Positions 1-11,806 are shown, counted from the stretch's first letter. The stretch: 64,000 nt of DNA from an uncultured Actinomycetes bacterium (GCA_963767005.1 CAVYCN010000003.1:256001-320000); one strand, 5' to 3'. The notes: a model not told the origin generated them from the sequence alone. Made by a program: numbers and translations.

Positions 1-1120
1 GCTGGGCCACCGTCACCCGACCGTCATGCGCGCCGTCCAGGGCCAGCTCCAGCACCAGGCGCTGCACTCGCAGGAGCTGCTCGACCCCATGCGCGGCTAC
101 CTGTGCGAGCTCGTCGCCATGGTCACGCCCGGCGACCTCCAGTACTCGTTCCTCGTGAACTCGGGCACCGAGGCCACCGAGGGCGCCCTCAAGTTCGCCA
201 AGGTCTATGCCTACGAGAAGAAGCCCGACCACATGCTGGGCGTGATCTCGACCACACGCGCCTTCCACGGCAAGTCGATGGGCAGCCTCAGCGTGAGCGG
301 CAAGCGCGAGTTCCGCGTGCCCTTCCAGCCGCTCGTGCCGGGCAGCCGCTTCGTGCCCTACGGCGACGCCGACGCGCTCGAGCGCGAGCTCGAGATCTGC
401 GACATGATCGGCTACGACATCGCCGCCTTCATCGTCGAGCCGGTCCAGGGCGAGGCCGGCGCCATCGTGCCGCCCGACGACTACCTGCCGCGCGTACGCG
501 AGATCTGCGACGAGTGGGACGTCGTGATGATCGCCGACGAGGTACAGACCGGCATGGGCCGCACCGGCAAGCTCTGGGGCGTCGACAACTGGGGCGTCGT
601 GCCCGACATCATGACCATGGGGAAGGCCTTCGGCGGCGCCGTGATCCCCTGCGGCAACATCGTCGTCAAGGAACGCATCTTCCACGCCATGTTCGCCAAC
701 CCCTACCTGCACACGACCACCTTCGGCGGCAACCCGCTGGCAACGGCCGCGGCGATCGGCGCCCTGCACGCGACGATCGAAGAGGACATCCCGCGCCAGG
801 CCGCCGAGAAAGGCGCCGTGCTGAAGGCCGGCGTGCAGACGCTCGCCGACGAGTACCCCGACATCTACGACGAGGTGCGCGGCCTCGGCCTGCTGATCGG
901 CATGGAGTTCCACGACGCCGAGACCGGCTACGCCGTCTCGTCGGGCCTGTTCAGCCGCGGCGTCCTGGTGGGCGGCACACTCAACAACGCCAAGACGCTA
1001 CGGCTCGAGCCGCCGGCCGTTATCAGCCTCGCGCAGATCGACGAGGTGCTGGCCCGCCTGGCCGAGACGCTCGCCGAGGTGCGCGCCACACGCGGCGCCG
1101 GCGCGCTCGTGACTCAGTAG
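1..1120 (+). CDS. patA: Putrescine aminotransferase (class III PLP), 5'-truncated by window edge
   Basis: Frame open from base 2 (LGHRHPTVM); motifs NSGTEATE, FHGKSMGSLS, EPVQGEAG, DEVQTGMGRTG, PLP lysine in TMGKAFGG, HTTTFGGNPLA and GTLNNAKTLRLEPP typical of PatA/YgjG. Confidence 0.88.
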   Translation, partial: LGHRHPTVMRAVQGQLQHQALHSQELLDPMRGYLCELVAMVTPGDLQYSFLVNSGTEATEGALKFAKVYAYEKKPDHMLGVISTTRAFHGKSMGSLSVSGKREFRVPFQPLVPGSRFVPYGDADALERELEICDMIGYDIAAFIVEPVQGEAGAIVPPDDYLPRVREICDEWDVVMIADEVQTGMGRTGKLWGVDNWGVVPDIMTMGKAFGGAVIPCGNIVVKERIFHAMFANPYLHTTTFGGNPLATAAAIGALHATIEEDIPRQAAEKGAVLKAGVQTLADEYPDIYDEVRGLGLLIGMEFHDAETGYAVSSGLFSRGVLVGGTLNNAKTLRLEPPAVISLAQIDEVLARLAETLAEVRATRGAGALVTQ

Positions 1121-1162
1121 CACCCGCTGACCGGCGGCGGCTGCCGCCGGGCGTCCGTACGA

Positions 1163-1212
1163 CGCGACGGGCGGCGGGGCGAGCCTTCTGGCTCGCCCCG
1201 CCGCCCGTCGCG
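1163..1212. terminator. 23-bp perfect stem, 4-nt loop; probable bidirectional terminator
   Basis: CGCGACGGGCGGCGGGGCGAGCC-TTCT-GGCTCGCCCCGCCGCCCGTCGCG between convergent stops at 1120 and 1254; no U-tract. Confidence 0.65.
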
Positions 1213-1253
1213 CTACGCCGCCGCGGGCGTCACCGCCCGCGGCGGCGCCTGTC

Positions 1254-2066
1254 TCACCAGTCCGAGAAGCCGGTGTTGTACCAGAGCTTGCTCGTGCCCT
1301 TCTTGGCACGCTTGTTCCAGGCCTTGGTCTTGGGCTCGGCCTCGATGCGCGCGAGCAACTGGTCGCAGCGATCCTTGACGTGCTGCTTCTGCTCCTCGCT
1401 GAACGCCGGGACCTTGTCGACGTGCTCCTTCACGCGGCCGAAGTTGGTCGTGGCCGTGTACCAGAAGCCCCAGTCGTCGCCGAAGCGCTTGGCGATGAAA
1501 GTCTGGTTGATCTTCTTCTCGTCGTCGTCGCCGATCGTGGCCGTCGTGAGCAGATACTCGATGTCCTTCAGGTCCTTGTCGTTGATCTCCCAGATCTGCA
1601 GCTTCTGCAGCATGATGTCGGACAGCGACACGCTGTAGGGGTCGAGCTCGAGGCGGCCTGCGTAGTTGACCTCGTGGCAGTAGTCGAGCTTGTCGAAGAA
1701 GACGTCGATCATCGGCACGGGGCCGGCGTAGTAGATGTGCCGCGTCTTGCCCGACGCCATCATCGTCTGCAGGTCGCACTCGTAGCCGAGCGTCTCCATG
1801 AACTTCGGCATCTTGCCGCTGGTCTTGCCGTAGGCGGCGTAGTCGATGTCGGTGAAGTACCGGTCGCCGAGGCGCTCCAGCTTCGCGTAGAGGTCGATCT
1901 GCTCCGGGAAGTAGTAGTGCAGCGCGAGCGGGCCCATGACGCGCATCGTGATGCCCGCCTGCTGGGCGGCCTCGACGATGCGTTTGCCCTCGGCCAGGAA
2001 GGTCTCGGGCGTGGGGTACTGGTCGAGCGGGATGTCCTTCGGCAGGATGAAGGGCTTGGTGCTCAT
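1254..2066 (-). CDS. Conserved hypothetical protein, probable Pol-beta-like nucleotidyltransferase fold
   Basis: 270 aa, RBS GAAGGAGG; hG-x-hA (VMGPLAL), DxD (TDIDY) and third acidic strand (MIDVF) pattern. Confidence 0.6.
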   Translation of the reverse strand: MSTKPFILPKDIPLDQYPTPETFLAEGKRIVEAAQQAGITMRVMGPLALHYYFPEQIDLYAKLERLGDRYFTDIDYAAYGKTSGKMPKFMETLGYECDLQTMMASGKTRHIYYAGPVPMIDVFFDKLDYCHEVNYAGRLELDPYSVSLSDIMLQKLQIWEINDKDLKDIEYLLTTATIGDDDEKKINQTFIAKRFGDDWGFWYTATTNFGRVKEHVDKVPAFSEEQKQHVKDRCDQLLARIEAEPKTKAWNKRAKKGTSKLWYNTGFSDW

Positions 2067-2173
2067 CGCCTGCTGTCGCCTCCTTCGGTAGGACGGGCGC
2101 GGGCGCGGGGGCGCCGCGGCGAGCGACCGGCGGGGCCCGCAGCCGGTGCGGGCCCCGCCGGTCTCAAGGGCGA

Positions 2174-3106
2174 TCAGCCCTGGGTGAAGACGTAGTCCTT
2201 CACCTTCTTCTTGTCGAGCATGATCACGACACCCTTGAGGATGCCCTCGGAGTACTCGCTGCCGGGGTTGATCATGAGCGTGCGGCCGGCCTTCTGGGCG
2301 CCGCGCGACTCGTGGATGTGCCCGTGCAGGCCGAGCAGCGGCTGGTACTTCTCGATCACCATCTTGGCGCCCTGGCTGCCCGCGTGGATCTTCTCCTCGG
2401 CGGACATCTTCATGTCCTTGTCGAGCTTCGGGCAGAGGTCGAGCGAGTAGCCGTGCGGCGGCACGTGGAAGTTGAAGATCGCGCCCTCGTAGTTGCTGAC
2501 CTTCTTGCAGAGCTCGTCGAGGTGAACGGACAGCTCCTCTTCGGACTCCTCACGCGGGGTGTCCCACGGCGTCGGGTTGCTGCGCGAGCACGACACCATC
2601 TCGTGGCCGTCGATGTCGACCACCATGTTGTCGCAGGGCTTGATGACCTTCATGCAGGAGATCATGTCGTCGACCTCCCACCAGTCGTCGTTGCCCGGGC
2701 AGATGTACATCGTGTGGCTCTTGCCCTCGAGCCGCTCGTCGGCCAGCTCGAGCCACTCCTGGATACGCTTGTAGGCGGCGTGCTTGAAGAGCTTGTCGAT
2801 CTCTTTCGGGTCGGCCTTGGTGGCCTCGAACTCCTCGCGGGTCTGGTTGATCCAGTAGTAGCCCGCGTTCTCGATGATCTTCTTGGTGTCGGCCAGCTCC
2901 TGCTCGGTGTTCATCTCGGTGTACATGCCCATGAGATGGCACTCGCGGCCACCGCCGGGCTTCTCGACCAGCGGGATGAGCACCTTGCCGAGCAGGTCGC
3001 CGTTCAGCACGGCGATATCGATGCCGTAGATCGGCAGGGCGTTCAAGAACTTGCGGTAGCAGACGTTCGAACCATGAATGTCGGTGACGTAGAACAGTTT
3101 GATCAT
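2174..3106 (-). CDS. Icc-like calcineurin-type metallophosphoesterase
   Basis: Motifs DIHG, GDL, PGNDD, FHVPP, HGHIHE, NPGS; RBS GGAGGGAGGG. Confidence 0.9.
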   Translation of the reverse strand: MIKLFYVTDIHGSNVCYRKFLNALPIYGIDIAVLNGDLLGKVLIPLVEKPGGGRECHLMGMYTEMNTEQELADTKKIIENAGYYWINQTREEFEATKADPKEIDKLFKHAAYKRIQEWLELADERLEGKSHTMYICPGNDDWWEVDDMISCMKVIKPCDNMVVDIDGHEMVSCSRSNPTPWDTPREESEEELSVHLDELCKKVSNYEGAIFNFHVPPHGYSLDLCPKLDKDMKMSAEEKIHAGSQGAKMVIEKYQPLLGLHGHIHESRGAQKAGRTLMINPGSEYSEGILKGVVIMLDKKKVKDYVFTQG

Positions 3107-3177
3107 CTATCACCCTCCCTCGGGCGGAGCGCGGGGGGCGAGAGCGGATGCTCCCGCCCCCCGCGCCGACGGTCAGA

Positions 3178-4812
3178 TCACTCCGGAGGCAGCTCGCCGT
3201 AGGTGACGGCCGAGATGTCCATGCCGGACTTGGCCTTGTTGTAGGCGCTCCAGGCGAAGTACCACACGACGCCGGCGGCCCAGATGCTGCCGAACAGAAT
3301 CCACGAAGGTCCGCTGAACGTCGCGGTCGCGGCGTTGTGGACGGTGAACTCCCAGAGCAGGATGACGAGGTAGACGAGGTCGACCGCGGCGCCCCAGACG
3401 ACGACCGGCAGGCCGAGGAAGGTCCACTTCTTGTAGGGCGACGAGTCCCACACGCCCTTGGCGCGCCGCGAGTACGGGAACCACAGTGCGGCGATCGCGG
3501 TCGGCAGGAAGACCGAGGTGATCTGCATGCCGGTCAGCACGATGTTCTGCATCTGGTTCTGCAGCAGCGTGTAGTAGAAGACCAGCAGCCCCTCGCCCAG
3601 GACCAGGCAGAGGATGTGGTTCTTAACCGGGCTCGCGTAGCGCGGGTTGATGTCGGTGAACCACTTCGGGCCCATGCGGTCCATGCCCCAGGCAAACAGG
3701 ATGCGCGGGAAGGCCAGGTACGAAAGCGCCAGCCACCACAGGGTGAAGGCCACGTACGAGAGGCCCATGAGCGCCGCGATCACCTTGGCCCATGCCGCCG
3801 ACGAGCCCAGCGAGTACACGGCCAAGTCGATGAAGTTCGTGCCGTGCGGCATGCCGGCCATCGACTTCAGCGTGTTGCCGTTATTGTCGTTCCAGGCGGT
3901 CGCGTTCAGGAACTGGAAGCCGACCGTCTTGTAGAGCACGATCGCGATCCAGAGCATGAACAGGAAGGGCACCAGAATGGCGAACAGGTTGGCCCAGATG
4001 ATCGACTTGTCGGGGCGCTTGACCTCGCCGGCGATGAAGGCGATCGAGTAGGCGTAGGCGAACAGCCACGACATGGCGACCATCGTGCCGAAGGTCGCAC
4101 CCCAGTTGGTGTGAGTCGGCATGGCGGTGCCGGCCTGGGCGGCGACCTGGGCCACGAAGGTGTGGTAGGTCGGGCCGTGGTTGGCCAGGGCCGCCGCGTT
4201 CCACTTCGACTCAAAGCCCGAGCGCGAGGTGATCGTCAGGACGACGCCGATGATCGCGCAGCCGCCGATGCCGAAGACCATGACGATCTTCTGCACCTTG
4301 GCGAAGATCTTGATGCCGAAGACCACGAAGAGGAAGCCGACCACGTTGAAGATCGAGGCGATGAAGAAGGTGTGCCAGGTGGGCGCGTCGACCCAGCTCG
4401 CAGCCTTCGTCCAGCCGAGATAGCTGAATGTGGTGTCGAGGCCGGGGCTGACGGCCAGAGGCGCCAGCACGTAGAGCCACATCAGCCAGATGGCGGCGTC
4501 GCCGAAGCTCTGGGCGATGCCGTAGACCGGGTGGATGATGCGCGAGTTGTAGACGTACTCGCCGCCGGACCGCGGCATCGAGCCGCCGAGGATGCCCCAG
4601 ACGAGCGGGAAGCCGATGCCGGCGAGCACCGCCGAGATGATCGCGGCGTAGATCAGGTTGCCGCCGAGGAAGACGCCGAGGCCGAGGCTCACGACGACCC
4701 AGATGCTCGGCGTCAGGCCCTGGTTCATGAAGCCGACCGCGAACGCGTCCATCATCGACAGACCGCGCACCAAGCCGCTTGCCTTACGTGCATACGCTAG
4801 TTCTTCAGACAC
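3178..4812 (-). CDS. APC-family amino acid/polyamine permease
   Basis: About 12 hydrophobic segments; RKASGLVR N-terminus, MPRSGGEYVY, AGEVKRP, RILFAWGMDR. Confidence 0.9.
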   Translation of the reverse strand: MSEELAYARKASGLVRGLSMMDAFAVGFMNQGLTPSIWVVVSLGLGVFLGGNLIYAAIISAVLAGIGFPLVWGILGGSMPRSGGEYVYNSRIIHPVYGIAQSFGDAAIWLMWLYVLAPLAVSPGLDTTFSYLGWTKAASWVDAPTWHTFFIASIFNVVGFLFVVFGIKIFAKVQKIVMVFGIGGCAIIGVVLTITSRSGFESKWNAAALANHGPTYHTFVAQVAAQAGTAMPTHTNWGATFGTMVAMSWLFAYAYSIAFIAGEVKRPDKSIIWANLFAILVPFLFMLWIAIVLYKTVGFQFLNATAWNDNNGNTLKSMAGMPHGTNFIDLAVYSLGSSAAWAKVIAALMGLSYVAFTLWWLALSYLAFPRILFAWGMDRMGPKWFTDINPRYASPVKNHILCLVLGEGLLVFYYTLLQNQMQNIVLTGMQITSVFLPTAIAALWFPYSRRAKGVWDSSPYKKWTFLGLPVVVWGAAVDLVYLVILLWEFTVHNAATATFSGPSWILFGSIWAAGVVWYFAWSAYNKAKSGMDISAVTYGELPPE

Positions 4813-4910
4813 TATCGCCCCCTTGGTTCCTTCAACGGCCGTGCCCTCGTTAGCGAAAGGAGAGACGAACGGACGGCCGTCCTACAACAACGTGTGCCTT
4901 CGTTTCGCGC

Positions 4911-5441
4911 CTACTCCCGACCGCCTCCCTTCTCCCCGACCGTCTCGGGAATGCGCCACTGATAGATGTCCTTGAGCTTCCAGGGGACCATGACGGTCCG
5001 CGTGCGCGAGACCCCGTTGACCTTGCCGATCACCTCGTCCACGAAGCGCAGCAGGTCTTCGGTGTCGCGCGCGTACACCTGCGCCGACAGGTCGCCGTTG
5101 CCCACGGCGCCGGCGACGTAGCTCACGTTGTCGAGGCTGCAGAGCTGCTCGGCGACCGACTGCACCATCCCGGGCGCGACCTCGATGATCACGTCGCCGG
5201 TGACCCGGTAGCCGACGGCCTGGGGATTGACGATGGCGGTGACCTTGACGACGCCGGCCCGCACGAGCCGCTCGATGCGGTAGCGTACCGCGCGCTCAGA
5301 CACGTGTCCGATGCGGCGCGTCATCTCGGCCGACGAGATACGGCCGTCCTCGGAGAGTAGTGCGACGATCTGGCGGTCGATCGCGTCGAGACTGAACGTC
5401 ACCCCTGACCCCTCTGGCGTGGACAGACCGGCTAACTTCAA
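4911..5441 (-). CDS. Lrp/AsnC family transcriptional regulator (start uncertain)
   Basis: LDAIDRQIVALLSEDGRIS HTH plus C-terminal RAM domain. Confidence 0.9.
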   Translation of the reverse strand: MKLAGLSTPEGSGVTFSLDAIDRQIVALLSEDGRISSAEMTRRIGHVSERAVRYRIERLVRAGVVKVTAIVNPQAVGYRVTGDVIIEVAPGMVQSVAEQLCSLDNVSYVAGAVGNGDLSAQVYARDTEDLLRFVDEVIGKVNGVSRTRTVMVPWKLKDIYQWRIPETVGEKGGGRE

Positions 5442-5654: not shown

Positions 5655-7547
5655 CTACACCTCGGCGCCGGCCACGACGCCGAGCGCCGCGCGCTCGTCG
5701 CCGGTCAGACGCTGGACAGCCTCGAAGCGGCAGACCTGACGGCAGGTGTCGCACTTCGTGCAGGCCGCCAGGTCGATCACATGGGGCTGTTTGCGCTCAC
5801 CGCTGATCGCCCCCACCGGGCACTTCTTGGCGCAGAGCATGCAGCCCGTGCAGGTGTCGGCGTCGATGTGGTAGCTCACGAGGGCGCTGCAGGCCCGCGC
5901 CGGGCAGGCGCCCTTGTAGATGTGGGCCTCGTACTCGTCGCGGAAGTAGCGGATCGTCGTGAGGACCGGGTTGGGCGCCGTCTGGCCCAGGCCGCAGAGG
6001 CTGGTCCGCTTGATCGTGACGGCCAGCTTCTCGAGGCGCTCGATGTCGCCGTCCTCGCCCTCGCCGGCGGTGATGCGCTCGAGGATCTCGAGCATGCGCT
6101 TGGTGCCGAGGCGGCAGGGCACGCACTTGCCGCAGCTCTCATTCTGCGTGAACTGCAGGAAGTACCGCGCGAGGTCGACCATGCAGGTCTGGTCGTCGGC
6201 CACGACCATGCCGCCCGAGCCCATGATGGCGCCCGTCGCGGCCAGGCTCTCGTAGTCGATCGGCGTGTCGATGAGCGCGGCCGGCACGCAGCCGCCCGAG
6301 GGGCCGCCGAGCTGCACGGCCTTGAAATCGCGCCCGCCCTTGATGCCGCCGCCGACGCCGTAGACCATCTCGCGGATGGTCGAGCCGATCGGCACCTCGG
6401 CGAGGCCGCCGTTCACTACCTTGCCGGCCAGCGAGAAGGCCTTGGTGCCGCGGCTCTTCTCGGTGCCGAGCGCCGCGTAGGCCGCGGCCCCGTGCGTGAT
6501 GATCCAGGGGATGTTGGCGTAGGTCTCGACGTTGTTGATGTTCGTCGGCTTGCCCCACAGGCCCGAGACCGCCGGGAACGGCGGCCGCGGCCGCGGCATG
6601 CCGCGGCGGCCTTCGATGCTCGCCATGAGGGCCGTCTCCTCGCCGCAGACGAAAGCGCCGGCCCCCTCCTTGATCTTCAGGTGGAAGTCCCAGTCGGTGC
6701 CGAAGACGTGATCGCCGAGAAAGCCGTGCTCCTCGGCCTGGGCGATCGCCATGCGCAGGCGCCGCACGGCCAGCGGATACTCGGCGCGCACGTAGATGTA
6801 ACCGTCGCGCGCGCCGATCGCAAAGGAGCCGATGATCATGCCCTCGATCACGGCGTGCGGGTCGCCGTCCATGATCGAGGCGTCCATGAAGGCGCCGGGG
6901 TCGCCCTCGTCGCCGTTGCAGATCAGGTACTTCTGATCGCCCTTCGAGGCCGCCGCGAACTTCCACTTCTGGCCGGTCGGAAAGCCGGCGCCGCCGCGGC
7001 CACGGAGGCCCGAGGCCAGGACCTCGTCGATGACCCACTGGGAGGTCTTCTCGGTCACGACGGTGCGCGCGGCGGCGTAGCCGCCGCGCGCGATGTACTC
7101 GTCGATGCGCTCGGGATGGATGATGCCGACGTCGCGCAGCGCGATGCGCTTCTGCTGGGCGTAGAAGGGGATGTCGTGCCAGCAGGCGATGCGTTCGCCC
7201 GTGCCCGGCTCGACGTACAGCAGGTCCTCGACGACCGCGCCGCCGACGAGGTGCTCGGCGACGATGCGCTTGACGTCTTTGGCCTTGAGCTTCGGGTAGT
7301 ACGTCTCGTCGCCCGACACGACGGCGAGCGGGCCCTGCGAGCAAAGGCCGTGACAGCCGATGATCGCGACCTCGACCTGGTCGGCAAGGCCGGCCTCGGC
7401 GATCTCGTGCTCGAAGGCCTCGAACATCTTCATCGAGCCGGCGAACACGCAGGCGGTGCCGGCGCAGACCTGGACACGGCGGCGCCCGTCGGACGCGGGC
7501 ACCACGCCGACGCGCACGCCCTCGGTAGCGGTCGTCGAGGCGCTCAT
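5655..7547 (-). CDS. HydB/NuoF-like flavin Fe-S subunit (NADH-binding, C-terminal 2x[4Fe-4S])
   Basis: ATG 7547 overlaps upstream stop; CAGTAC..CHGLC [2Fe-2S]; SGLRGRGGAGFPTG, GDEGDPGAFMD, GAGAFVCGEETAL, ESCGKCVPCR; two CxxCxxCxxxC motifs. Confidence 0.92.
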   Translation of the reverse strand: MSASTTATEGVRVGVVPASDGRRRVQVCAGTACVFAGSMKMFEAFEHEIAEAGLADQVEVAIIGCHGLCSQGPLAVVSGDETYYPKLKAKDVKRIVAEHLVGGAVVEDLLYVEPGTGERIACWHDIPFYAQQKRIALRDVGIIHPERIDEYIARGGYAAARTVVTEKTSQWVIDEVLASGLRGRGGAGFPTGQKWKFAAASKGDQKYLICNGDEGDPGAFMDASIMDGDPHAVIEGMIIGSFAIGARDGYIYVRAEYPLAVRRLRMAIAQAEEHGFLGDHVFGTDWDFHLKIKEGAGAFVCGEETALMASIEGRRGMPRPRPPFPAVSGLWGKPTNINNVETYANIPWIITHGAAAYAALGTEKSRGTKAFSLAGKVVNGGLAEVPIGSTIREMVYGVGGGIKGGRDFKAVQLGGPSGGCVPAALIDTPIDYESLAATGAIMGSGGMVVADDQTCMVDLARYFLQFTQNESCGKCVPCRLGTKRMLEILERITAGEGEDGDIERLEKLAVTIKRTSLCGLGQTAPNPVLTTIRYFRDEYEAHIYKGACPARACSALVSYHIDADTCTGCMLCAKKCPVGAISGERKQPHVIDLAACTKCDTCRQVCRFEAVQRLTGDERAALGVVAGAEV

Positions 7548-8143
7548 CGCCCGCCTCCGGCGCCGGCCGCGCCGTCGCCCGAAGCGCCGTCGTCGGCGCC
7601 CGCGGCGCCGCGCAGGTCGTCGCCGGTGAGGCCGAGCTGCTCGAGCACGCCGATGATGTAGGTGCGCGTGGAGTCGGGGGTGAGGTTGCCGAACGTGTCG
7701 CTGTCGATGCGCATGACGGGCGCCTGCGAGCAGGCCCCCATGCAGGCGACCGAGTCGAGCGTGAAGCTCATGTCGGGAGTGGTGCCGCCGTCGGCCACGC
7801 CGAGCTCCTGCTCGAGGGCCTCGGTGATGCGCGGCGCGCCCGCCACGTGGCAGGCCGTGCCGTGGCAGACGAAGACCTTGTGACGCCCGCTGGGCTCGGT
7901 CGAGAACTGCGCGTAGAAGGTGACGATGCCGTAGATGCGCGCCGCCGGCACGCCCGACAGGCGCGCGATCTCGTTGACCACGGGCTCCGGCAGGTAGCCG
8001 TAGTGCGCCTGTACGTGCTGCAGCACGGCGATGAGGTTGCCGTGGGGGTCGATCTCGCCGACCACCCGGCCGACCTCGGAGAGGTCGAGCTCGGGCACGG
8101 CCGCGCCGGCCTGGGCCTGAGAGTCTGTCACGCGCCTGGGCAT
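7544..8143 (-). CDS. HydC/NuoE-like [2Fe-2S] subunit
   Basis: LQHVQAHYGYLP, VTFYAQF, CHGTAC and CMGAC ligands. Confidence 0.92.
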   Translation of the reverse strand: MPRRVTDSQAQAGAAVPELDLSEVGRVVGEIDPHGNLIAVLQHVQAHYGYLPEPVVNEIARLSGVPAARIYGIVTFYAQFSTEPSGRHKVFVCHGTACHVAGAPRITEALEQELGVADGGTTPDMSFTLDSVACMGACSQAPVMRIDSDTFGNLTPDSTRTYIIGVLEQLGLTGDDLRGAAGADDGASGDGAAGAGGGR

Positions 8144-8315
8144 GTCCTACCTTCCGCTGTCGCTCCACCGCGATCGGCCCCGTGGGGGCCTTCCACCATC
8201 AACGTGCCGCCACGTGCCCGGCCGCGCCCGGCGCCCGCAGGCGCCGGCGCCGAGCCGGTGTCGTCATTGTCGCGCCTCGGCGTCGAGGCGCGCAACCGAG
8301 GCGTCCCGCGCCGAG

Positions 8316-8355
8316 GCGCCGGTGGCGGGGGCGTCGACGCCCCCGCCACCGGCGC
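8316..8355. repeat. Perfect 40-bp palindrome downstream of folD
   Basis: GCGCCGGTGGCGGGGGCGTC|GACGCCCCCGCCACCGGCGC. Confidence 0.85.
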
Positions 8356-8365
8356 TCGCGGGCTG

Positions 8366-9247
8366 TCAGGCGCCGCCGGTCTGGGCCTGGCAGGCCGCCA
8401 GGGCGTTCTTGAGCAGGATCACGTTCGTCACGGGGCCGACCCCGCCGGGCACCGGCGTGACCTTCGAGGCGACCTCGCAGACGGCGTCGAAGTCGAGGCT
8501 GCCGACCTGCTTGCCCTCGATGCGGATCGTGGTCACGTCGACGACGACCGCGCCGGGCTTGACCATGTCCTTCTTGATCAGGTTCTGCACCGGCGCGGCG
8601 CAGATCAGCACGTCGGCCTCGCGGCAGGCGGCCGCCACGTCCTTGCTGAAGACGTGGACCACGTGCACCGTCGCATTCTTGTTCAGGCAGAGCAGGGCGG
8701 CCGGCTTGCCGACGATGTTCGAGTGGTTGACGATCGTGACGTTCAGGCCCCTGTCCTTGCCCTCCCCGTCGACGTACATCAGATCGACACCCTCACGCGC
8801 GAGGATCTCCATGCAGGCCGACGGCGTCGCCGGAGCGAACAGGAAGTCGCCGAGCAGCACGTGGCCGATGTTGGCCGGGTTCACGCAGTCGAGGTCCTTG
8901 ATGGGGGCGATCGCGTTGAAGACGGCGTTCTGGTCGATGTCGCCGGCCATCGGCATCAGGGCGAGGATGCCGTGCACCGCCGGGTCGGCGTTGAGGGTCG
9001 CGATCAGGTCGAGCACCTCGGCCTGGCTCGTGCCGGCCGGCAGCGTGTGGTTGAAGTAGGCGAAGCCCACGGTGCCCGTGTTCTTCTCGATCTGGCCGCG
9101 ATAGAACTGCGCGCCGCCGTCGTCGCCGACGAGGATCGTCGCGACGCCCGGCTTGACGCCACGCGCGGCGAGCTTCTCGACCTCGGCGACGATCTCGGCA
9201 CGCACCTGTTCGGCGATCGCCTTGCCGTCGATGATCTGCGCTGTCAT
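8366..9247 (-). CDS. folD: Methylene-THF dehydrogenase (FolD family, variant)
   Basis: MTAQIIDGKAIA start, LNADPAVHGIL, KDLDC, PATP, IVGKP, TPVPGGVGPVT. Confidence 0.93.
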   Translation of the reverse strand: MTAQIIDGKAIAEQVRAEIVAEVEKLAARGVKPGVATILVGDDGGAQFYRGQIEKNTGTVGFAYFNHTLPAGTSQAEVLDLIATLNADPAVHGILALMPMAGDIDQNAVFNAIAPIKDLDCVNPANIGHVLLGDFLFAPATPSACMEILAREGVDLMYVDGEGKDRGLNVTIVNHSNIVGKPAALLCLNKNATVHVVHVFSKDVAAACREADVLICAAPVQNLIKKDMVKPGAVVVDVTTIRIEGKQVGSLDFDAVCEVASKVTPVPGGVGPVTNVILLKNALAACQAQTGGA

Positions 9248-9299
9248 GTCGTTCCAGCCCTTCTGTCGTCGTGGGGCGCGGCCCTGCGGCGCGCGCGGC

Positions 9300-9941
9300 T
9301 CACAGCTTGTCGTGGGTGACGGCCATGACCTCGGCACGCAGAATGACCGCCTCGCCGAGGATGCCGTCGAGCTCGGCGCGCGCGGCGGCGACGTAGCCTT
9401 CGTCCTTGATCGAGCCGAGGTTGATGAGCACGTTCAGGGCGGCGCCCTGGGCCGCCGACTCACCCAGGATCGCGCCGATCGCGGCGTCGGTCACGGCCGC
9501 CGGGTTGCCGATCTCGGCGGCCGTCTTGGCCAGGCGGCAGACCTCGAGCGCCACGCGGGCGATCTCGAGCGGCACATTGGCGGCCACCTTGAGGGCGGCC
9601 TGGATGTGGGCGGCGCGCGCGGCCTGCTGCTCGGGCGTGTCCTTGGGCATGCGGTAGCCCTCGATCACGCCGTTGTAGGCCGTCGTGTCGTCCTGGAGCA
9701 GGCGCTCGAGCTCGACGCGGCGCGCCTCGGAGGCGGTCACGACCTCGCGCACCTGCGCCTCGACGCCGGCGAACTTCTCCTTGCCGATCGTCAGGTTGCA
9801 GACCATCGACACGAGGGCCGCGCCGAGTGCCCCGGCACAGGCCGACACGCTGCCGCCGCCGGGCGCCGGCTTGCCCGACGCGGCGTCGTCGACGTAGGTC
9901 TGCAGCGACTCGTCGCGGTAGATGGTGGCCTGGTCGCTCAC
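9300..9941 (-). CDS. fchA: Methenyl-THF cyclohydrolase / formiminoTHF cyclodeaminase family
   Basis: PAPGGGSVSA, MVCNLTIGK, GNPAAVTD, NVLINL; GGAGG RBS; located between fhs and folD. Confidence 0.85.
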   Translation of the reverse strand: MSDQATIYRDESLQTYVDDAASGKPAPGGGSVSACAGALGAALVSMVCNLTIGKEKFAGVEAQVREVVTASEARRVELERLLQDDTTAYNGVIEGYRMPKDTPEQQAARAAHIQAALKVAANVPLEIARVALEVCRLAKTAAEIGNPAAVTDAAIGAILGESAAQGAALNVLINLGSIKDEGYVAAARAELDGILGEAVILRAEVMAVTHDKL

Positions 9942-10028
9942 GGCTTATCCTCCGATCACTGGCGTTCGCTCGATGTCGGGGCCGGTCCGGCGGCCGCGGC
10001 GCGCAACCGCGCACGGACGGCGGCGGCG

Positions 10029-10070
10029 AGGCGGGGGCGGCGGCGCCGTACGGCGCCGCCGCCCCCGCCT
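10029..10070. repeat. Perfect 42-bp palindrome downstream of fhs
   Basis: AGGCGGGGGCGGCGGCGCCGT|ACGGCGCCGCCGCCCCCGCCT. Confidence 0.85.
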
Positions 10071-10090
10071 GTCCGGCCCGCGGACCGCGT

Positions 10091-11806
10091 CTAGAACAGG
10101 CCGATGATGCGGCCGGTCTGCGTATCGATATCGACGTCGACCGCCGCCGGCCGCTTGGCCAGGCCCGGCATCGTACGCATCTCGCCGAGCAGCGGGTAGA
10201 GGTAACCCGCACCGGTCGCCGGACGGATGTCGCGGATCGGCACGCGGAAGCCGCGCGGCCGGCCCTTGAGCGCCGGGTCGTGACTGAGCGAGAGGTGCGT
10301 CTTGGCCATGCAGAGCGGCAGCTTGTCGAGGCCCTGCTCGGTGAAGAGCTTGATCTTGGCCTCGGCCTCGGGCAGATAGTCGACGCCGTCGGCGCCGTAG
10401 ATCTTGGTGGCGATGGTCTCGATCTTCTCCTTGATCGAGGCCTCGAGCGGGTAGAGGAACCTGAAGTCGCCGCCGCGGTCGGCCGCCGCCTTGACGACCT
10501 CGGCCGCCTCCTGGCCGCCGTCGCCGCCCAGGGCGTGGACGTTGATCGGCACCGCATCCTCGGCGCCGGCCGCCACGGCCGCCTTGCGCACGATCTCGAC
10601 CTCGGTCTCGCGGTCGAAGGCGAAGCGGTTGATGGTGACCACCACGGGGATGCCGAAGAACTTCATGTTCTCGATCTGCTTGGCGAGGTTCTCGCAGCCC
10701 TTCTCGAGGGCGACGTTGTTCTCGGCCTTGAGCGCCTCGGGATCGACCGGCATGCCGCCGTGCATCTTGAGCGCCCGCATGGTGCAGGTGATGACCACGG
10801 CGCTCGGCGCGAAGCCGCCGTAGCGGCAGATGATGTCCATGAACTTCTCGGCGCCCAGGTCGGCGGCGAAGCCGCTCTCGGTGACGACGTAGTCGGCCAG
10901 CTTCATGGCGACCTGGTCGGCGATGATCGAGTTGTTGCCCTGGGCGATGTTGGCGAACGGACCCGCGTGGATCAGGCTGGCGTTGCCCTCGAGGGTCTGC
11001 ATGAGGTTCGGCTTGATGGCGTCCTTGAGGAGCACCGTCATGGCGCCGCCGGCGCCGATGTCGTCGGCCGTGAGCGGCTTGCCCGTCTTGCTGTAGCCGA
11101 AGGTGATGCGGCCGAGACGCTCGCGCAGGTCCTTGAGCGAGGTCGCCAGGCCGAGGATGGCCATGACCTCGCTGGCGACCGTGATGTCGTAGCCGGTCTG
11201 GCGCGGGATGCCGTTCAAGCGGCCGCCGAGCCCGTTCACGATCTCGCGCATGGCGCGGTCGTTCAGGTCGACGCAGCGCCGCCACGAGATGGTCAGCGGG
11301 TCGATGTTCAGCTCGTTGCCGTGCATGAGATGGCTGTCGACCATGGCGGCGAGCAGGTTGTTGGCGGTGCCGACGGCGTGGATGTCGCCGGTGAAGTGGA
11401 GGTTCAGGTCCTCCATCGGGATGAGCTGCGAGTAACCGCCGCCGGCGGCGCCGCCCTTGATGCCGAAGACCGGCCCGAGCGACGGCTCGCGCAGCGCCAG
11501 CATCGTGTTGACGCCGATCGCGTTCATCGACTCGGACAGGCCGACGGCCGTGACCGTCTTGCCCTCGCCGAGCGGCGTCGGAGTGATGGCGGTGACGTCG
11601 ATGATCTTGCCGTCGGGCTTGTTCTTCAGCCGCTCGAGCAGGGCCATGTAGTCGATCTTGGCCTTGTAGCGGCCGTAGAGCTCGAGCTCCTCTTCGAGAA
11701 TGCCGACCTTGGCGGCGATCTCGGTGATCGGCAGCATGGTCGCCGCCTGGGCGATCTCGATGTCCTTGGGCACCGGGGACTTGCGGACAGGCTTTGCCGG
11801 ACTCAA
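10091..11806 (-). CDS. fhs: Formate--tetrahydrofolate ligase
   Basis: TTG start after GAGGAGGG; TPTPLGEGKT, KGGAAGGGYSQ, NLHFTGDIHA, GPFANIA, MAKTHLSLS, TMPGL. Confidence 0.97.
   Translation of the reverse strand: MSPAKPVRKSPVPKDIEIAQAATMLPITEIAAKVGILEEELELYGRYKAKIDYMALLERLKNKPDGKIIDVTAITPTPLGEGKTVTAVGLSESMNAIGVNTMLALREPSLGPVFGIKGGAAGGGYSQLIPMEDLNLHFTGDIHAVGTANNLLAAMVDSHLMHGNELNIDPLTISWRRCVDLNDRAMREIVNGLGGRLNGIPRQTGYDITVASEVMAILGLATSLKDLRERLGRITFGYSKTGKPLTADDIGAGGAMTVLLKDAIKPNLMQTLEGNASLIHAGPFANIAQGNNSIIADQVAMKLADYVVTESGFAADLGAEKFMDIICRYGGFAPSAVVITCTMRALKMHGGMPVDPEALKAENNVALEKGCENLAKQIENMKFFGIPVVVTINRFAFDRETEVEIVRKAAVAAGAEDAVPINVHALGGDGGQEAAEVVKAAADRGGDFRFLYPLEASIKEKIETIATKIYGADGVDYLPEAEAKIKLFTEQGLDKLPLCMAKTHLSLSHDPALKGRPRGFRVPIRDIRPATGAGYLYPLLGEMRTMPGLAKRPAAVDVDIDTQTGRIIGLF

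Follow-up and report, generated by a model that had tools for sequence, protein, structure and literature searches.

A nucleotidyltransferase, a metallophosphoesterase and an APC permease form a conserved three-gene module that may act as a reversible transporter switch

Results

Organization of the locus

The window, which is the whole stretch of DNA analysed here, comprises 64,000 nt of an uncultured Actinomycetes bacterium, and the locus lies at positions 1-5,441. Genes for an Lrp regulator, an APC permease, a calcineurin-like metallophosphoesterase (MPE) and a Pol-beta nucleotidyltransferase (NT) lie on the minus strand and run towards a class III aminotransferase gene on the plus strand. 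This is the arrangement given in a preliminary description, four co-oriented genes facing patA, and every gene was recovered at the following coordinates. NT, MPE and the permease are referred to together as the trio.

1..1120, plus strand: PatA-like putrescine aminotransferase, 3' part (by NF008570 score)
1163..1247: pair of perfect hairpins, GC-rich, between the stop codons of the convergent genes (23-bp stem at 1163-1212, 14-bp stem at 1216-1247), likely their shared terminator
1254..2066, minus strand: NT gene, 270 aa, Pol-beta superfamily by fold and conserved residues, of a family without a name
2125..2163: perfect 17-bp hairpin in the intergenic region between MPE and NT
2174..3106, minus strand: MPE gene, 310 aa, calcineurin-like by metal ligands and fold
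3129..3166: 17-bp hairpin, 94% complementary, in the intergenic region between permease and MPE
3178..4812, minus strand: APC-superfamily permease gene, 544 aa, CAT/GkApcT-like by Pfam and profile matches
3181..3225, minus strand: conserved permease C-terminal tail, G530 ... E-L-P542-P-E, at the extreme protein end
4765..4794, minus strand: conserved permease N-terminal motif F/Y-x-R-x-x-[S/T]-G-L-x-R/K, residues 7-16
4911..5402, minus strand: Lrp/AsnC regulator (AsnC/Lrp Pfam matches), 163 aa from GTG 5402; the ORF reaches TTG 5441

GTG 5402 is the probable Lrp start because the resulting 163 aa match the length of relatives. The full-length aminotransferase has 463 aa, its start lying 272 bases ahead of the window (G000 C3:255729). 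It passed the putrescine aminotransferase model NF008570 (626.8 vs. a cut-off of 612) and scored below the cut-off of TIGR03372 (522 vs. 659). BLAST with the intergenic hairpins returned 4, 2 and 1 rows, self and reverse matches included, which ruled out a genome-wide repeat for all three. A search of the locus for a sigma-70 promoter found none, and terminator-like matches were at chance level (3 vs. 1.9 +/- 1.6).

NT and MPE had been described as Lys/Glu-rich, and they indeed rank at percentiles 99.2 and 99.8 among 2143 called proteins. GC3 was 0.98 for NT and 0.96 for MPE, with a genome median of 0.945. Since neither value is below the median, the Lys/Glu richness is no sign of recent transfer, and recent horizontal transfer was rejected as its source. 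The RNA runs contained relatives only, with a word share of at most 0.09. In four metatranscriptomes, contigs 85-99% identical span permease, MPE and NT, some of them linking MPE to NT or the permease to MPE; because contigs cannot prove a transcript, they were not counted as evidence of expression.

The two enzymes of the trio

The hG..DxD..D pattern noted earlier in NT is real, and its aspartates are conserved across 127 relatives. G45 was found in 126 of them, D73 in all 127 and D75 in 126, while position 121 carries D in 115 relatives and E in another 11. In the window clade, position 46 is P. The motif Arg is conserved as well (R65 or R69 by the alignment used), as are H131, K155, Q157, D165, D168, W199, K246 and R253, with K155, D165 and D168 invariant in the same alignment. 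A Foldseek check on the product of 1254-2066, suggested in the preliminary description, found the Pol-beta fold in the AlphaFold model (pLDDT 93.9). Among the matches listed in the structure search, the 8 with Z of at least 8 were all nucleotidyltransferases, and NT belongs to the ANT(2'')-Ia/MenT/LnuA structural clade (top Z 11.6). With its hG[GS]-type motif, DxD, third carboxylate and modelled alpha/beta core, NT is predicted to be a member of the Pol-beta superfamily.

No named Pfam nucleotidyltransferase family (NTP_transf_5, DUF6036, Aminoglyc_resit) reached its curated cut-off. The window NT scored 12.4 bits against PF14907 (cut-off 31.2), and 15 of 40 NT members matched this family (best E 1.2e-4), with 1/40 each for PF19502 and PF10706. 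NT sequence or profile searches against PDB sequences gave nothing meaningful, and NCBIfam holds no model for NT or for the permease. In the protein atlas, NT falls in unnamed clusters and MPE in generic metallophosphoesterase clusters. The cyclic-dinucleotide synthase CdnE resembled NT weakly (Foldseek E 0.018, below the ANT/MenT clade) and was absent among the 50 structural matches listed.

NT-MPE fusions exist in L065 (581 aa) and P0241 (579 aa). A search for longer NT forms, with 7991 scored, gave 4 matches, namely one NT-MPE fusion, one single-occurrence IclR-type join and two apparent assembly or frameshift artefacts. A sister clade of NT is fused to Fic protein-AMPylase domains, and a stand-alone sister clade has no permease nearby. 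The underlying NT tree is a quick tree with many long branches, and its use was limited to the window and stand-alone clades.

All seven MPE metal ligands (D9, H11, D37, N139, H214, H263, H265) were present in 60/60 aligned relatives. MPE is a calcineurin-like protein, as its DxH, GD, GN, H and HxH ligands lie on a beta-sandwich fold (Z 24.2 to 2yvt), with aq_1956, TT1561 and MPPED2 as its closest folds. It also carries an insert of about 90 residues that is specific to the family, and its third motif is GNDD. Its Pfam scores were below the cut-offs, and the single MPE sequence had no match among PDB sequences. It is not assigned to the Icc/CpdA cAMP phosphodiesterase equivalog, the sole NCBIfam match being PRK09453 with 20.9 bits against 117.

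The three genes are inherited together

We searched 604 genomes, 151 from each of four groups, with profiles for NT, MPE and the permease. All three genes were present in 85 genomes, none in 511, and 8 were mixed. In the archaeal phylum of G001, NT was found in 21 genomes, strong MPE in 20, the permease in 20 and all three in 19. The corresponding numbers were 23, 24, 23 and 22 in the phylum of the Chloroflexota locus (G002), where copy numbers also match, e.g. 5/5/6 in G208, and 45, 44, 44 and 43 in the window's own class. In the phylum of G003, trio genes occurred only in the centre genome, which carries all three. These NT counts include the stand-alone sister clade, the sole type found in G529 and G589. 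In four of the 8 mixed genomes the locus lies at a contig end (G247, G226, G167, G566); G049 has a lone NT with an internal TAG, G008 has a divergent permease only, and the remaining two are G001 and G517. For five long or isolated NT-only loci, MPE and permease were present elsewhere in every genome. The linkage of the trio is far beyond chance, and the recurrence in archaea and Chloroflexota, suggested in the preliminary description, was found in both.

The three genes need not be adjacent. G034, G042, G063, G117, G124 and G154 have one NT match each, away from MPE and permease genes, and the one strong NT match of G113 is likewise apart. Archaeal genomes with a single unlinked NT carry 3-9 permeases, and the single copies adjoin housekeeping genes. 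One genome carries six MPEs and several trios. Within 67 trios, MPE and permease were adjacent in 53, NT and MPE in 43, and NT and permease in 9. Partial distance correlations in these trios were 0.71 for MPE-permease, 0.48 for NT-MPE and 0.03 for NT-permease, figures that come from related, query-biased and non-independent loci in which at least 6/67 trios were paired by nearest distance and are possibly mispaired.

The pathway context follows the permease

A class III aminotransferase gene lies near 19/27 trios of the window permease clade, including the Anaerolineae and Thermoplasmata copies, the latter flanked by arginine decarboxylase and deoxyhypusine synthase genes. It lies near only 2/40 trios of other permease clades. 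The aminotransferase thus tracks the permease clade and not NT, as a pathway partner of the permease. NTs 66-77% identical to the window NT pair with permeases only 25-29% identical, beside dimethylamine methyltransferase. Other neighbours, from 74 representatives scanned in Pfam, include xylulokinase, glycerol-kinase-like, inositol-dehydrogenase-like, tryptophanase and betaine/choline genes, so that amine, choline, amino-acid and sugar pathways are all represented. Lrp, found in 20/80 loci, goes with the window clade and not with the module generally; DeoR, GntR, TetR and LacI regulators are also common beside trios. A CBS-domain gene follows NT in 13/80 loci, and in 5 loci the permease has a member of a second CBS family nearby; these genes are lineage-restricted.

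The preliminary description had read the locus as an amine-processing system and had proposed a neighbourhood analysis. The amine reading applies to the window permease clade, which goes with diamine/polyamine genes, and does not extend to the other trios; likewise, permease and MPE co-occur with NT, whereas the aminotransferase is mostly confined to one permease clade. These results indicate that the trio is a conserved three-gene module tied to a permease family and not to any pathway. Its writer/eraser-like pair, suspected earlier to be an undescribed system, is real and conserved. The literature searched, chiefly openly licensed (CC) papers, described no APC transporter with an obligate nucleotidyltransferase and phosphoesterase, and the trio is apparently undescribed.

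The permease has conserved cytoplasmic tails

The permease belongs to the APC superfamily: it scored 46.7 bits against PF13520 (AA_permease_2; cut-off 27), and its profile matched solved APC carriers (CAT4, GkApcT, CAT1, LAT, AdiC). Judging from neighbour genes, the likely cargo of the window permease clade is putrescine or a related polyamine.

Both terminal tails are cytoplasmic and among the best-conserved residues of the family. A terminal [ILV]-P-x-x was found in 106/116 permeases. In the N-terminal motif F-x-R-x-x-[S/T]-G-L-x-R, whose frame was located by a pattern without the S/T requirement, the S/T position was S or T in 103/103 permeases (S 81, T 22) and never A, D, N or G. The 60/60 S/T of the 60-row alignment A9 was not used, since that alignment had been preselected on the tail motif and the count is circular. 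In the window permease this residue is Ser12 (codon at 4777-4779). The motif was missing from 13 of the 116 permeases scoring at least 150, comprising 3 with late starts, 5 truncated at the end of a locus or contig, 1 Ser-keeping variant, 2 of a divergent subgroup and 2 remaining. The divergent subgroup (L121-L124) has no N-terminal motif and is the sole permease type of G008, in which no NT or MPE match was found. The conservation pattern makes the N-terminal motif a candidate acceptor of a modification and the C-terminal tail a candidate docking site.

Discussion

Comparison with known systems

According to PMC4285133, GlnD both attaches NMP to PII and removes it, actinobacteria have an amtB-glnK-glnD operon, and glnD occurs mainly in proteobacteria and actinobacteria. 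As in AmtB-GlnK(PII)-GlnD so described, the trio brings a nitrogen-compound transporter together with a Pol-beta nucleotidyltransferase and a metal-dependent hydrolase that are linked or fused, and by analogy it might likewise perform reversible protein NMPylation. However, the transporter is APC and not Amt, and the eraser, to which NT is fused in L065 and P0241, is calcineurin-like instead of an HD domain. NT is a small single unit of the ANT(2'')/MenT clade, too short to accommodate ACT or HD domains. Neither the window's five genes nor the 74 neighbour representatives included a PII family; therefore the proposed target is the transporter's own tail. The trio would resemble GlnD-PII-AmtB in its operation without belonging to that system.

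NT resembles ANT(2'')-Ia (4xje; Z 11.6, rmsd 3.4 over 154 residues) and LnuA (4wh5; Z 9.6, rmsd 3.1 over 137), with which it shares a three-Asp metal site and an upstream Arg. It differs from them in sequence (14-15% identity), in an extra helical C-terminal part of about 70 residues with invariant W/K/R/G residues, and in its chromosomal trio context, which is not a resistance context. It also resembles MenT/AbiEii proteins in fold (DUF1814; MenT1 Z 11.3, rmsd 3.5 over 169 residues), and its conserved Lys and C-terminal Asp residues may correspond to theirs. According to PMC11375011, MenT toxins act on tRNA, their motifs I-IV include a catalytic Lys and Asp (K137/D152 in MenT1), and MenT1 can transfer phosphate to a Thr, which provides a precedent. 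Unlike MenT/AbiEii, the three NTs scanned had no PADLOC match, and no antitoxin family was among the 74 neighbour representatives; the recurring, obligate partners of NT are MPE and the permease.

The MPE fold is shared with aq_1956 (Z 24.2) and TT1561 (23.8), both PF14582, MPPED2 (21.0), Rv0805 (18.0) and PptH (16.4), all with the full binuclear site. PptH strips the covalent 4'-phosphopantetheine from carrier proteins (PMC8557913). MPE is set apart from these phosphodiesterases by 11-18% identity, the GNDD motif, the insert and the strict link to one permease family.

In Escherichia coli, the APC permease PuuP lies beside putrescine catabolism, with PuuA and PuuD for glutamate-based protection and its removal, and the PatA/PatD route uses a PatA-type putrescine aminotransferase. 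The window locus likewise has an APC permease and a PatA-type aminotransferase, but its enzyme pair does not follow putrescine genes. None of its five genes encodes a PuuA ligase (glutamine-synthetase-like) or a PuuD hydrolase (amidotransferase-like), and a glutamine-synthetase-family gene was near the trio in L044 only, among the neighbours scanned.

A proposed reversible switch and its alternatives

The explanation we favour, tentatively and at a little under an even chance, is that the trio is a reversible covalent switch in which NT puts a mark on the permease tail and MPE, docked on the permease, takes it off. MPE would dock on the cytoplasmic face of the permease. The group that NT would move from NTP to the N-terminal Ser/Thr would be an NMP, probably AMP, or possibly a phosphate, and MPE would hydrolyse the mark off the tail. 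Uptake would thereby probably be switched off and on by nutrient or energy state. Y86 or S90 of the permease, or MPE itself, may be the acceptor instead. At the window locus, the cargo would likely be putrescine or a related polyamine, handed to the aminotransferase.

Gene content, folds, active-site motifs, co-inheritance, pathway independence, tail motifs and NT-MPE fusions support this switch. Because neighbours vary and close NT paralogues pair with distant permeases, it would serve the transporter and not a pathway. The fusions put opposing activities in one chain, MPE is the hub of gene order, and the motif-less permeases are the sole type in a genome without NT or MPE. GlnD, PptH, the phosphate transfer by MenT1 and the Fic fusions of the NT sister clade serve as precedents. 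On the other side, the S/T-only column may be structural (hydrogen bond, helix cap), docking tails suit rival mechanisms equally, the closest solved folds of NT target small molecules or tRNA and not proteins, and the near 1:1:1 duplication in Chloroflexota is more like machine subunits than a shared regulator.

That duplication, near-obligate co-occurrence, the fusions and the co-variation of MPE with its own permease would also fit a transport machine, in which NT and MPE, as cytoplasmic subunits docked on the tails, spend NTP in each transport cycle, through solute tagging and release in the manner of generic trapping or group translocation, or through a carrier-driving mark. This shifts the earlier tag-and-untag idea from the pathway to the transporter. 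ANT(2'') and LnuA, the closest folds, adenylylate small amino-sugar drugs. However, one NT would have to take diamines, quaternary amines, amino acids and polyols with pocket residues invariant across these contexts, and some archaea have just one unlinked NT for 3-9 permeases. Ion-coupled permeases also remain compatible with the data, and we consider such a machine rather unlikely.

It is unlikely that the trio instead signals as a transceptor, with permease conformation controlling NT and a diffusible nucleotide, imagined as of cyclic or dinucleoside type, being degraded by MPE and read by local regulators. This develops the earlier idea of a nucleotidylated signal. The phosphodiesterases MPPED2 and Rv0805 as closest characterised MPE folds, the CBS-domain genes and the frequent regulators are consistent with it. 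However, no receptor family is common to all lineages, the CdnE match is weak, and in the genome with six MPEs and several trios a shared pool would lead to cross-talk.

Quite unlikely is an APC carrier driven or gated by NTP, with one subunit nucleotidylating the tail Ser/Thr and another hydrolysing the mark. If true, the trio would be a new type of transporter, its secondary-carrier scaffold converted to primary active or group-translocating import, and it would be in use in archaea as well as in uncultured bacteria of soil and sediment.

In the preliminary description, NT was suggested to protect one putrescine amine as an NMP-phosphoramidate during catabolism, in the manner of PuuA/PuuD, with MPE removing it. 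The adjacent PatA-like gene and the aminotransferases of the window clade agree with this, but it is very improbable given their near absence from other trios, the close NTs in dimethylamine-methyltransferase loci, the unrelated sugar, polyol, tryptophan and betaine contexts and the archaeal NTs shared by 3-9 permeases; moreover, the PatA route works on free putrescine by transamination, for which a protecting group is not required. Least credible is a MenT/AbiEii-type tRNA toxin with MPE as antidote, the pair stabilising catabolic islands: NT matches MenT1, TglT (Z 9.5) and MenT4 (8.6), and its Lys/Asp may correspond to motifs III and IV (PMC11375011), but three NTs scanned had no PADLOC match, no AbiEi/MenA-type family was among the 74 neighbour representatives, single archaeal copies adjoin housekeeping genes, and dependence on one permease family is left unexplained.

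Implications

If the switch is true, a prokaryotic solute carrier would be nucleotidylated directly and reversibly, at a residue that can be named. Two enzyme families without a name would acquire a function, as would the conserved tails shared by a large permease family. The switch would further point to control of nutrient uptake in archaea, where, given the distribution of glnD in PMC4285133, GlnD-type control is not the rule. Since the module is frequent (19/151 archaeal, 22/151 Chloroflexota-sample and 43/151 own-class genomes), the switch would affect the uptake of amines, methylamines and sugars in soils, peat and sediments.

The trio in the window and its predicted enzymes

The window spans C3:256001-320000 of the own genome (G000), and close homologues of the NT described below bear Thermoleophilia names. 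The five genes named in the preliminary description were all found where it had placed them. They encode Lrp, an APC permease, a calcineurin-like metallophosphoesterase (MPE), a Pol-beta nucleotidyltransferase (NT) and a PatA-like class III aminotransferase. The last is truncated by the window edge; the full-length protein scored above the NF008570 cut-off and below that of TIGR03372. Permease, MPE and NT form the trio, and three intergenic gaps hold perfect or near-perfect GC-rich hairpins:

1163-1247, hairpins 3' of the NT gene
1254-2066, minus strand, NT
2125-2163, hairpin 3' of the MPE gene
2174-3106, minus strand, MPE
3129-3166, hairpin 3' of the permease gene
3178-4812, minus strand, permease

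The hairpins lack U tails and could have a role in transcript stability or stoichiometry. Directly upstream of lrp, positions 5655-11773 (minus strand) hold genes which we take to encode NuoE/NuoF-like electron-bifurcating subunits, FolD, a cyclodeaminase-like protein and formate-tetrahydrofolate ligase. This block is also kept ahead of the operon in relatives (families f9, f13, f22 and f23). The Lys/Glu richness reported earlier for NT and MPE was borne out, both being in the top 1% of the genome for Lys+Glu. Since their codon GC equals the genome median or exceeds it, they are native, conserved genes.

NT had no family match above cut-off in Pfam or NCBIfam. Its AlphaFold model was confident (pLDDT 93.9, built from 94 sequences) and best matched ANT(2'')-Ia (Z 11.6, rmsd 3.4, 154 residues), followed by MenT1 (Z 11.3), 5uvd (11.0), JHP933 (10.1) and LnuA (9.6). 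Pol-beta itself reached only Z 5.4, far under the ANT(2'')-Ia/MenT1/LnuA group, and a Foldseek check on 1254-2066, suggested in the preliminary description, agreed with the ANT(2'')-Ia/MenT ranking. D73, H131, K155, Q157, D165, D168, W199 and the motif Arg were invariant in 127/127 relatives, and D75, G45, G200 and K246 were kept in 126/127. The MPE model (pLDDT 96.1) matched aq_1956 (Z 24.2), TT1561 (23.8) and MPPED2 (21.0), and further Mre11, Rv0805 (Z 18.0) and PptH (Z 16.4). All seven metal ligands were present in 60/60 aligned relatives. Assignment of MPE to Icc/CpdA was rejected by score. As predicted from sequence, NT and MPE both look like active enzymes.

The two enzymes are fused in one chain in locus L065 and in protein P0241. 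Small unnamed genes separate the NT-MPE fusion from the permease (L065:5093-5997, L159:9466), and a relative of these comes after the permease in genome G167.

Stand-alone NT sister clade and Fic fusions

A sister clade of stand-alone NTs, with 4-5 copies in the own genome, had no permease or MPE in its neighbourhood. Some of its members carry a Fic domain in the same chain, as seen in the own genome and, among proteins selected for long open frames, in 12 from 10 relatives. The features are as follows:

L007:2260-4275 (own genome, C2:614260-616275), Fic + NT fusion; also at loci L167-L172, L175, L176 and L178-L180
C3:91593, C2:594889, C4:294088 and C19:85745 (own genome), stand-alone NT sister clade; also at loci L172-L174, L177 and L182-L185

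The fusions are about 670-700 aa long (one, of 784 aa, is apparently frameshifted), and their Fic motif mostly has Gly at a position where an acidic residue is usual. Next to some of the stand-alone NTs lie unnamed small genes or one for an LMW phosphatase/arsenate reductase. The Fic fusion hints at protein-directed chemistry.

Co-inheritance of the three genes

The own genome has 9 NT, 6 MPE and 8-9 strong permease matches, arranged as four full trios plus two MPE+permease pairs. Their neighbours encode an aminotransferase, dimethylamine and monomethylamine methyltransferases, a choline-kinase-like protein, amidinotransferase, carbamoyltransferase and carbamate kinase. Two near-identical NT+MPE copies on different contigs, at C3:96909-98736 and C2:300533-302360 (MPE identical, NT ~2 residues apart), stand in front of diverged permeases, which may reflect a recent duplication, gene conversion or heterogeneity of the bin.

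Scanning of genome contigs gave at least 495 relatives. Among the best 80, the fetched flank contained the complete trio in 65, NT+MPE in seven, NT+permease in one and NT only in seven. For five of these seven NT-only loci the rest of the genome was inspected, and MPE and permease were found elsewhere in every case. Because close relatives are over-represented in the best-80 set, three profiles were run against the same random draws of genomes. In the phylum of the archaeal genome G001 (151 genomes), NT was found in 21, MPE in 22 (20 strong, two weak partial), the permease in 20 and all three in 19. The corresponding numbers were 23, 24, 23 and 22 in the phylum of G002, the genome of a Chloroflexota locus, and 45, 44, 44 and 43 in the own class; in the phylum of G003 each gene was found once, in the centre genome alone. 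Summed over the four groups, where counts include non-independent kin and at most nine permease candidates were scored per genome, 85/604 genomes had all three, 511 had none (two of these with a weak MPE match only) and eight were mixed. Four of the mixed cases lay at contig ends; in one the sole match was an NT interrupted by a stop, and in another it was a divergent permease. The distribution was patchy inside families and genera.

Five loci (L030, L032, L036, L037 and L038) have a second same-family permease upstream of lrp, giving two permeases to one MPE and one NT. Ten archaeal trio loci, among L051-L061 and L066, contain family f15 (~232 aa, e.g. L051:203-898), which had no Pfam or NCBIfam match and is a possible fourth component in those lineages.

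The permease family and its tails

The permease is an APC carrier, nearest to CAT/GkApcT. Its clades are 19-25% identical to each other, and they retain loop residues general to APC carriers together with two motifs at the termini. An N-tail frame pattern that did not require Ser or Thr was applied to 116 permeases scoring at least 150. It was present in 103, with Ser (81) or Thr (22) before G-L, and 106/116 had a C-terminal [ILV]-P-x-x ending. Eleven of the 13 permeases lacking the N-tail frame were accounted for, and the motif was absent from all fifteen weak APC matches (score <60). The remaining near-invariant hydroxyls predicted on the cytoplasmic side are Y86 and S90.

A divergent archaeal subgroup (L121-L124) has no S/T-G tail, and this type is the sole one in a genome without NT or MPE match; the subgroup is a natural control for the module. 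In three of these four loci the same unnamed 520-600 aa gene comes after the permease.

Pathway context

Among 67 trios, a class III aminotransferase lay within 6 kb in 19 of the 27 with a permease at least 33% identical to that of the window, versus only 2 of the remaining 40 (<33%). The putrescine link of the preliminary description is therefore real for the window's permease clade, whose cargo is likely a diamine, but it fails for the module as a putrescine pathway. NTs that share 66-77% identity with the window's go with permeases of 25-29% and MPEs of 39-41% identity, adjoined by a dimethylamine methyltransferase. Other neighbours are DAO-GcvT dehydrogenases with choline kinases, acetamidase, proline racemase, agmatinase, and oxoprolinase-like, tryptophanase, xylulokinase, glycerol-kinase-like and inositol-dehydrogenase-like genes; some trios have none. 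The constant across these contexts is the permease family, not the pathway.

Seven archaeal genomes (G034, G042, G063, G113, G117, G124 and G154) have 3-9 permeases and one strong NT match each, located apart from the MPE and permease genes. The enzyme pair is cargo-independent and can be encoded far from permease genes.

Genes for pylB, pylC and pylD scored above NCBIfam cut-offs at L001:5102-8370 (C3:243102-246370), 10-13 kb before the window starts. An MtbB gene adjoining another trio is interrupted by a stop, in relatives as well as in the own genome, a pattern that fits pyrrolysine read-through.

Proposed mechanism

Two predicted, opposing enzyme chemistries, sometimes fused, accompany a single transporter family, in whose tail a hydroxyl is invariant. 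In the proposed switch, MPE would dock on the permease, NT would transfer NMP (or phosphate) to permease Ser12, MPE would take it off again, and uptake would be switched by the tag state. Because of adjacency and distance correlations, MPE is placed between permease and NT. Each of the chemical steps has a precedent, in GlnD-PII (PMC4285133), PptH (PMC8557913) and MenT1 auto-phosphorylation (PMC11375011), and MntA is reported to adenylylate HepT (PMC7641770). However, the S/T conservation may be structural, and the nearest solved NT relatives have drugs and tRNA as substrates. We hold the switch as a whole tentatively, at slightly less than an even chance.

A role at the transporter in trapping or energising coupled to NTP is unlikely but deserves weight; the 1:1:1 duplication of the three genes fits such a transport machine. 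A nucleotide signal controlled by the permease is rather unlikely. Protection specific to putrescine is very improbable, and that NT is a tRNA toxin is slightly more so; other readings together carry a small probability. The switch may work on a principle like that of AmtB-GlnK-GlnD. Membership in that system was rejected, since the module has neither an Amt nor an HD domain and no PII gene in its vicinity; Puu and, by context, a MenT toxin-antitoxin pair were rejected too.

No account of the trio was found in the open-access literature searched. The trio is a real, widespread, transporter-coupled and apparently undescribed module. This analysis addressed its profile across four groups, how far permease clade and pathway part ways, its action in trans, and the Ser/Thr of the permease tail.
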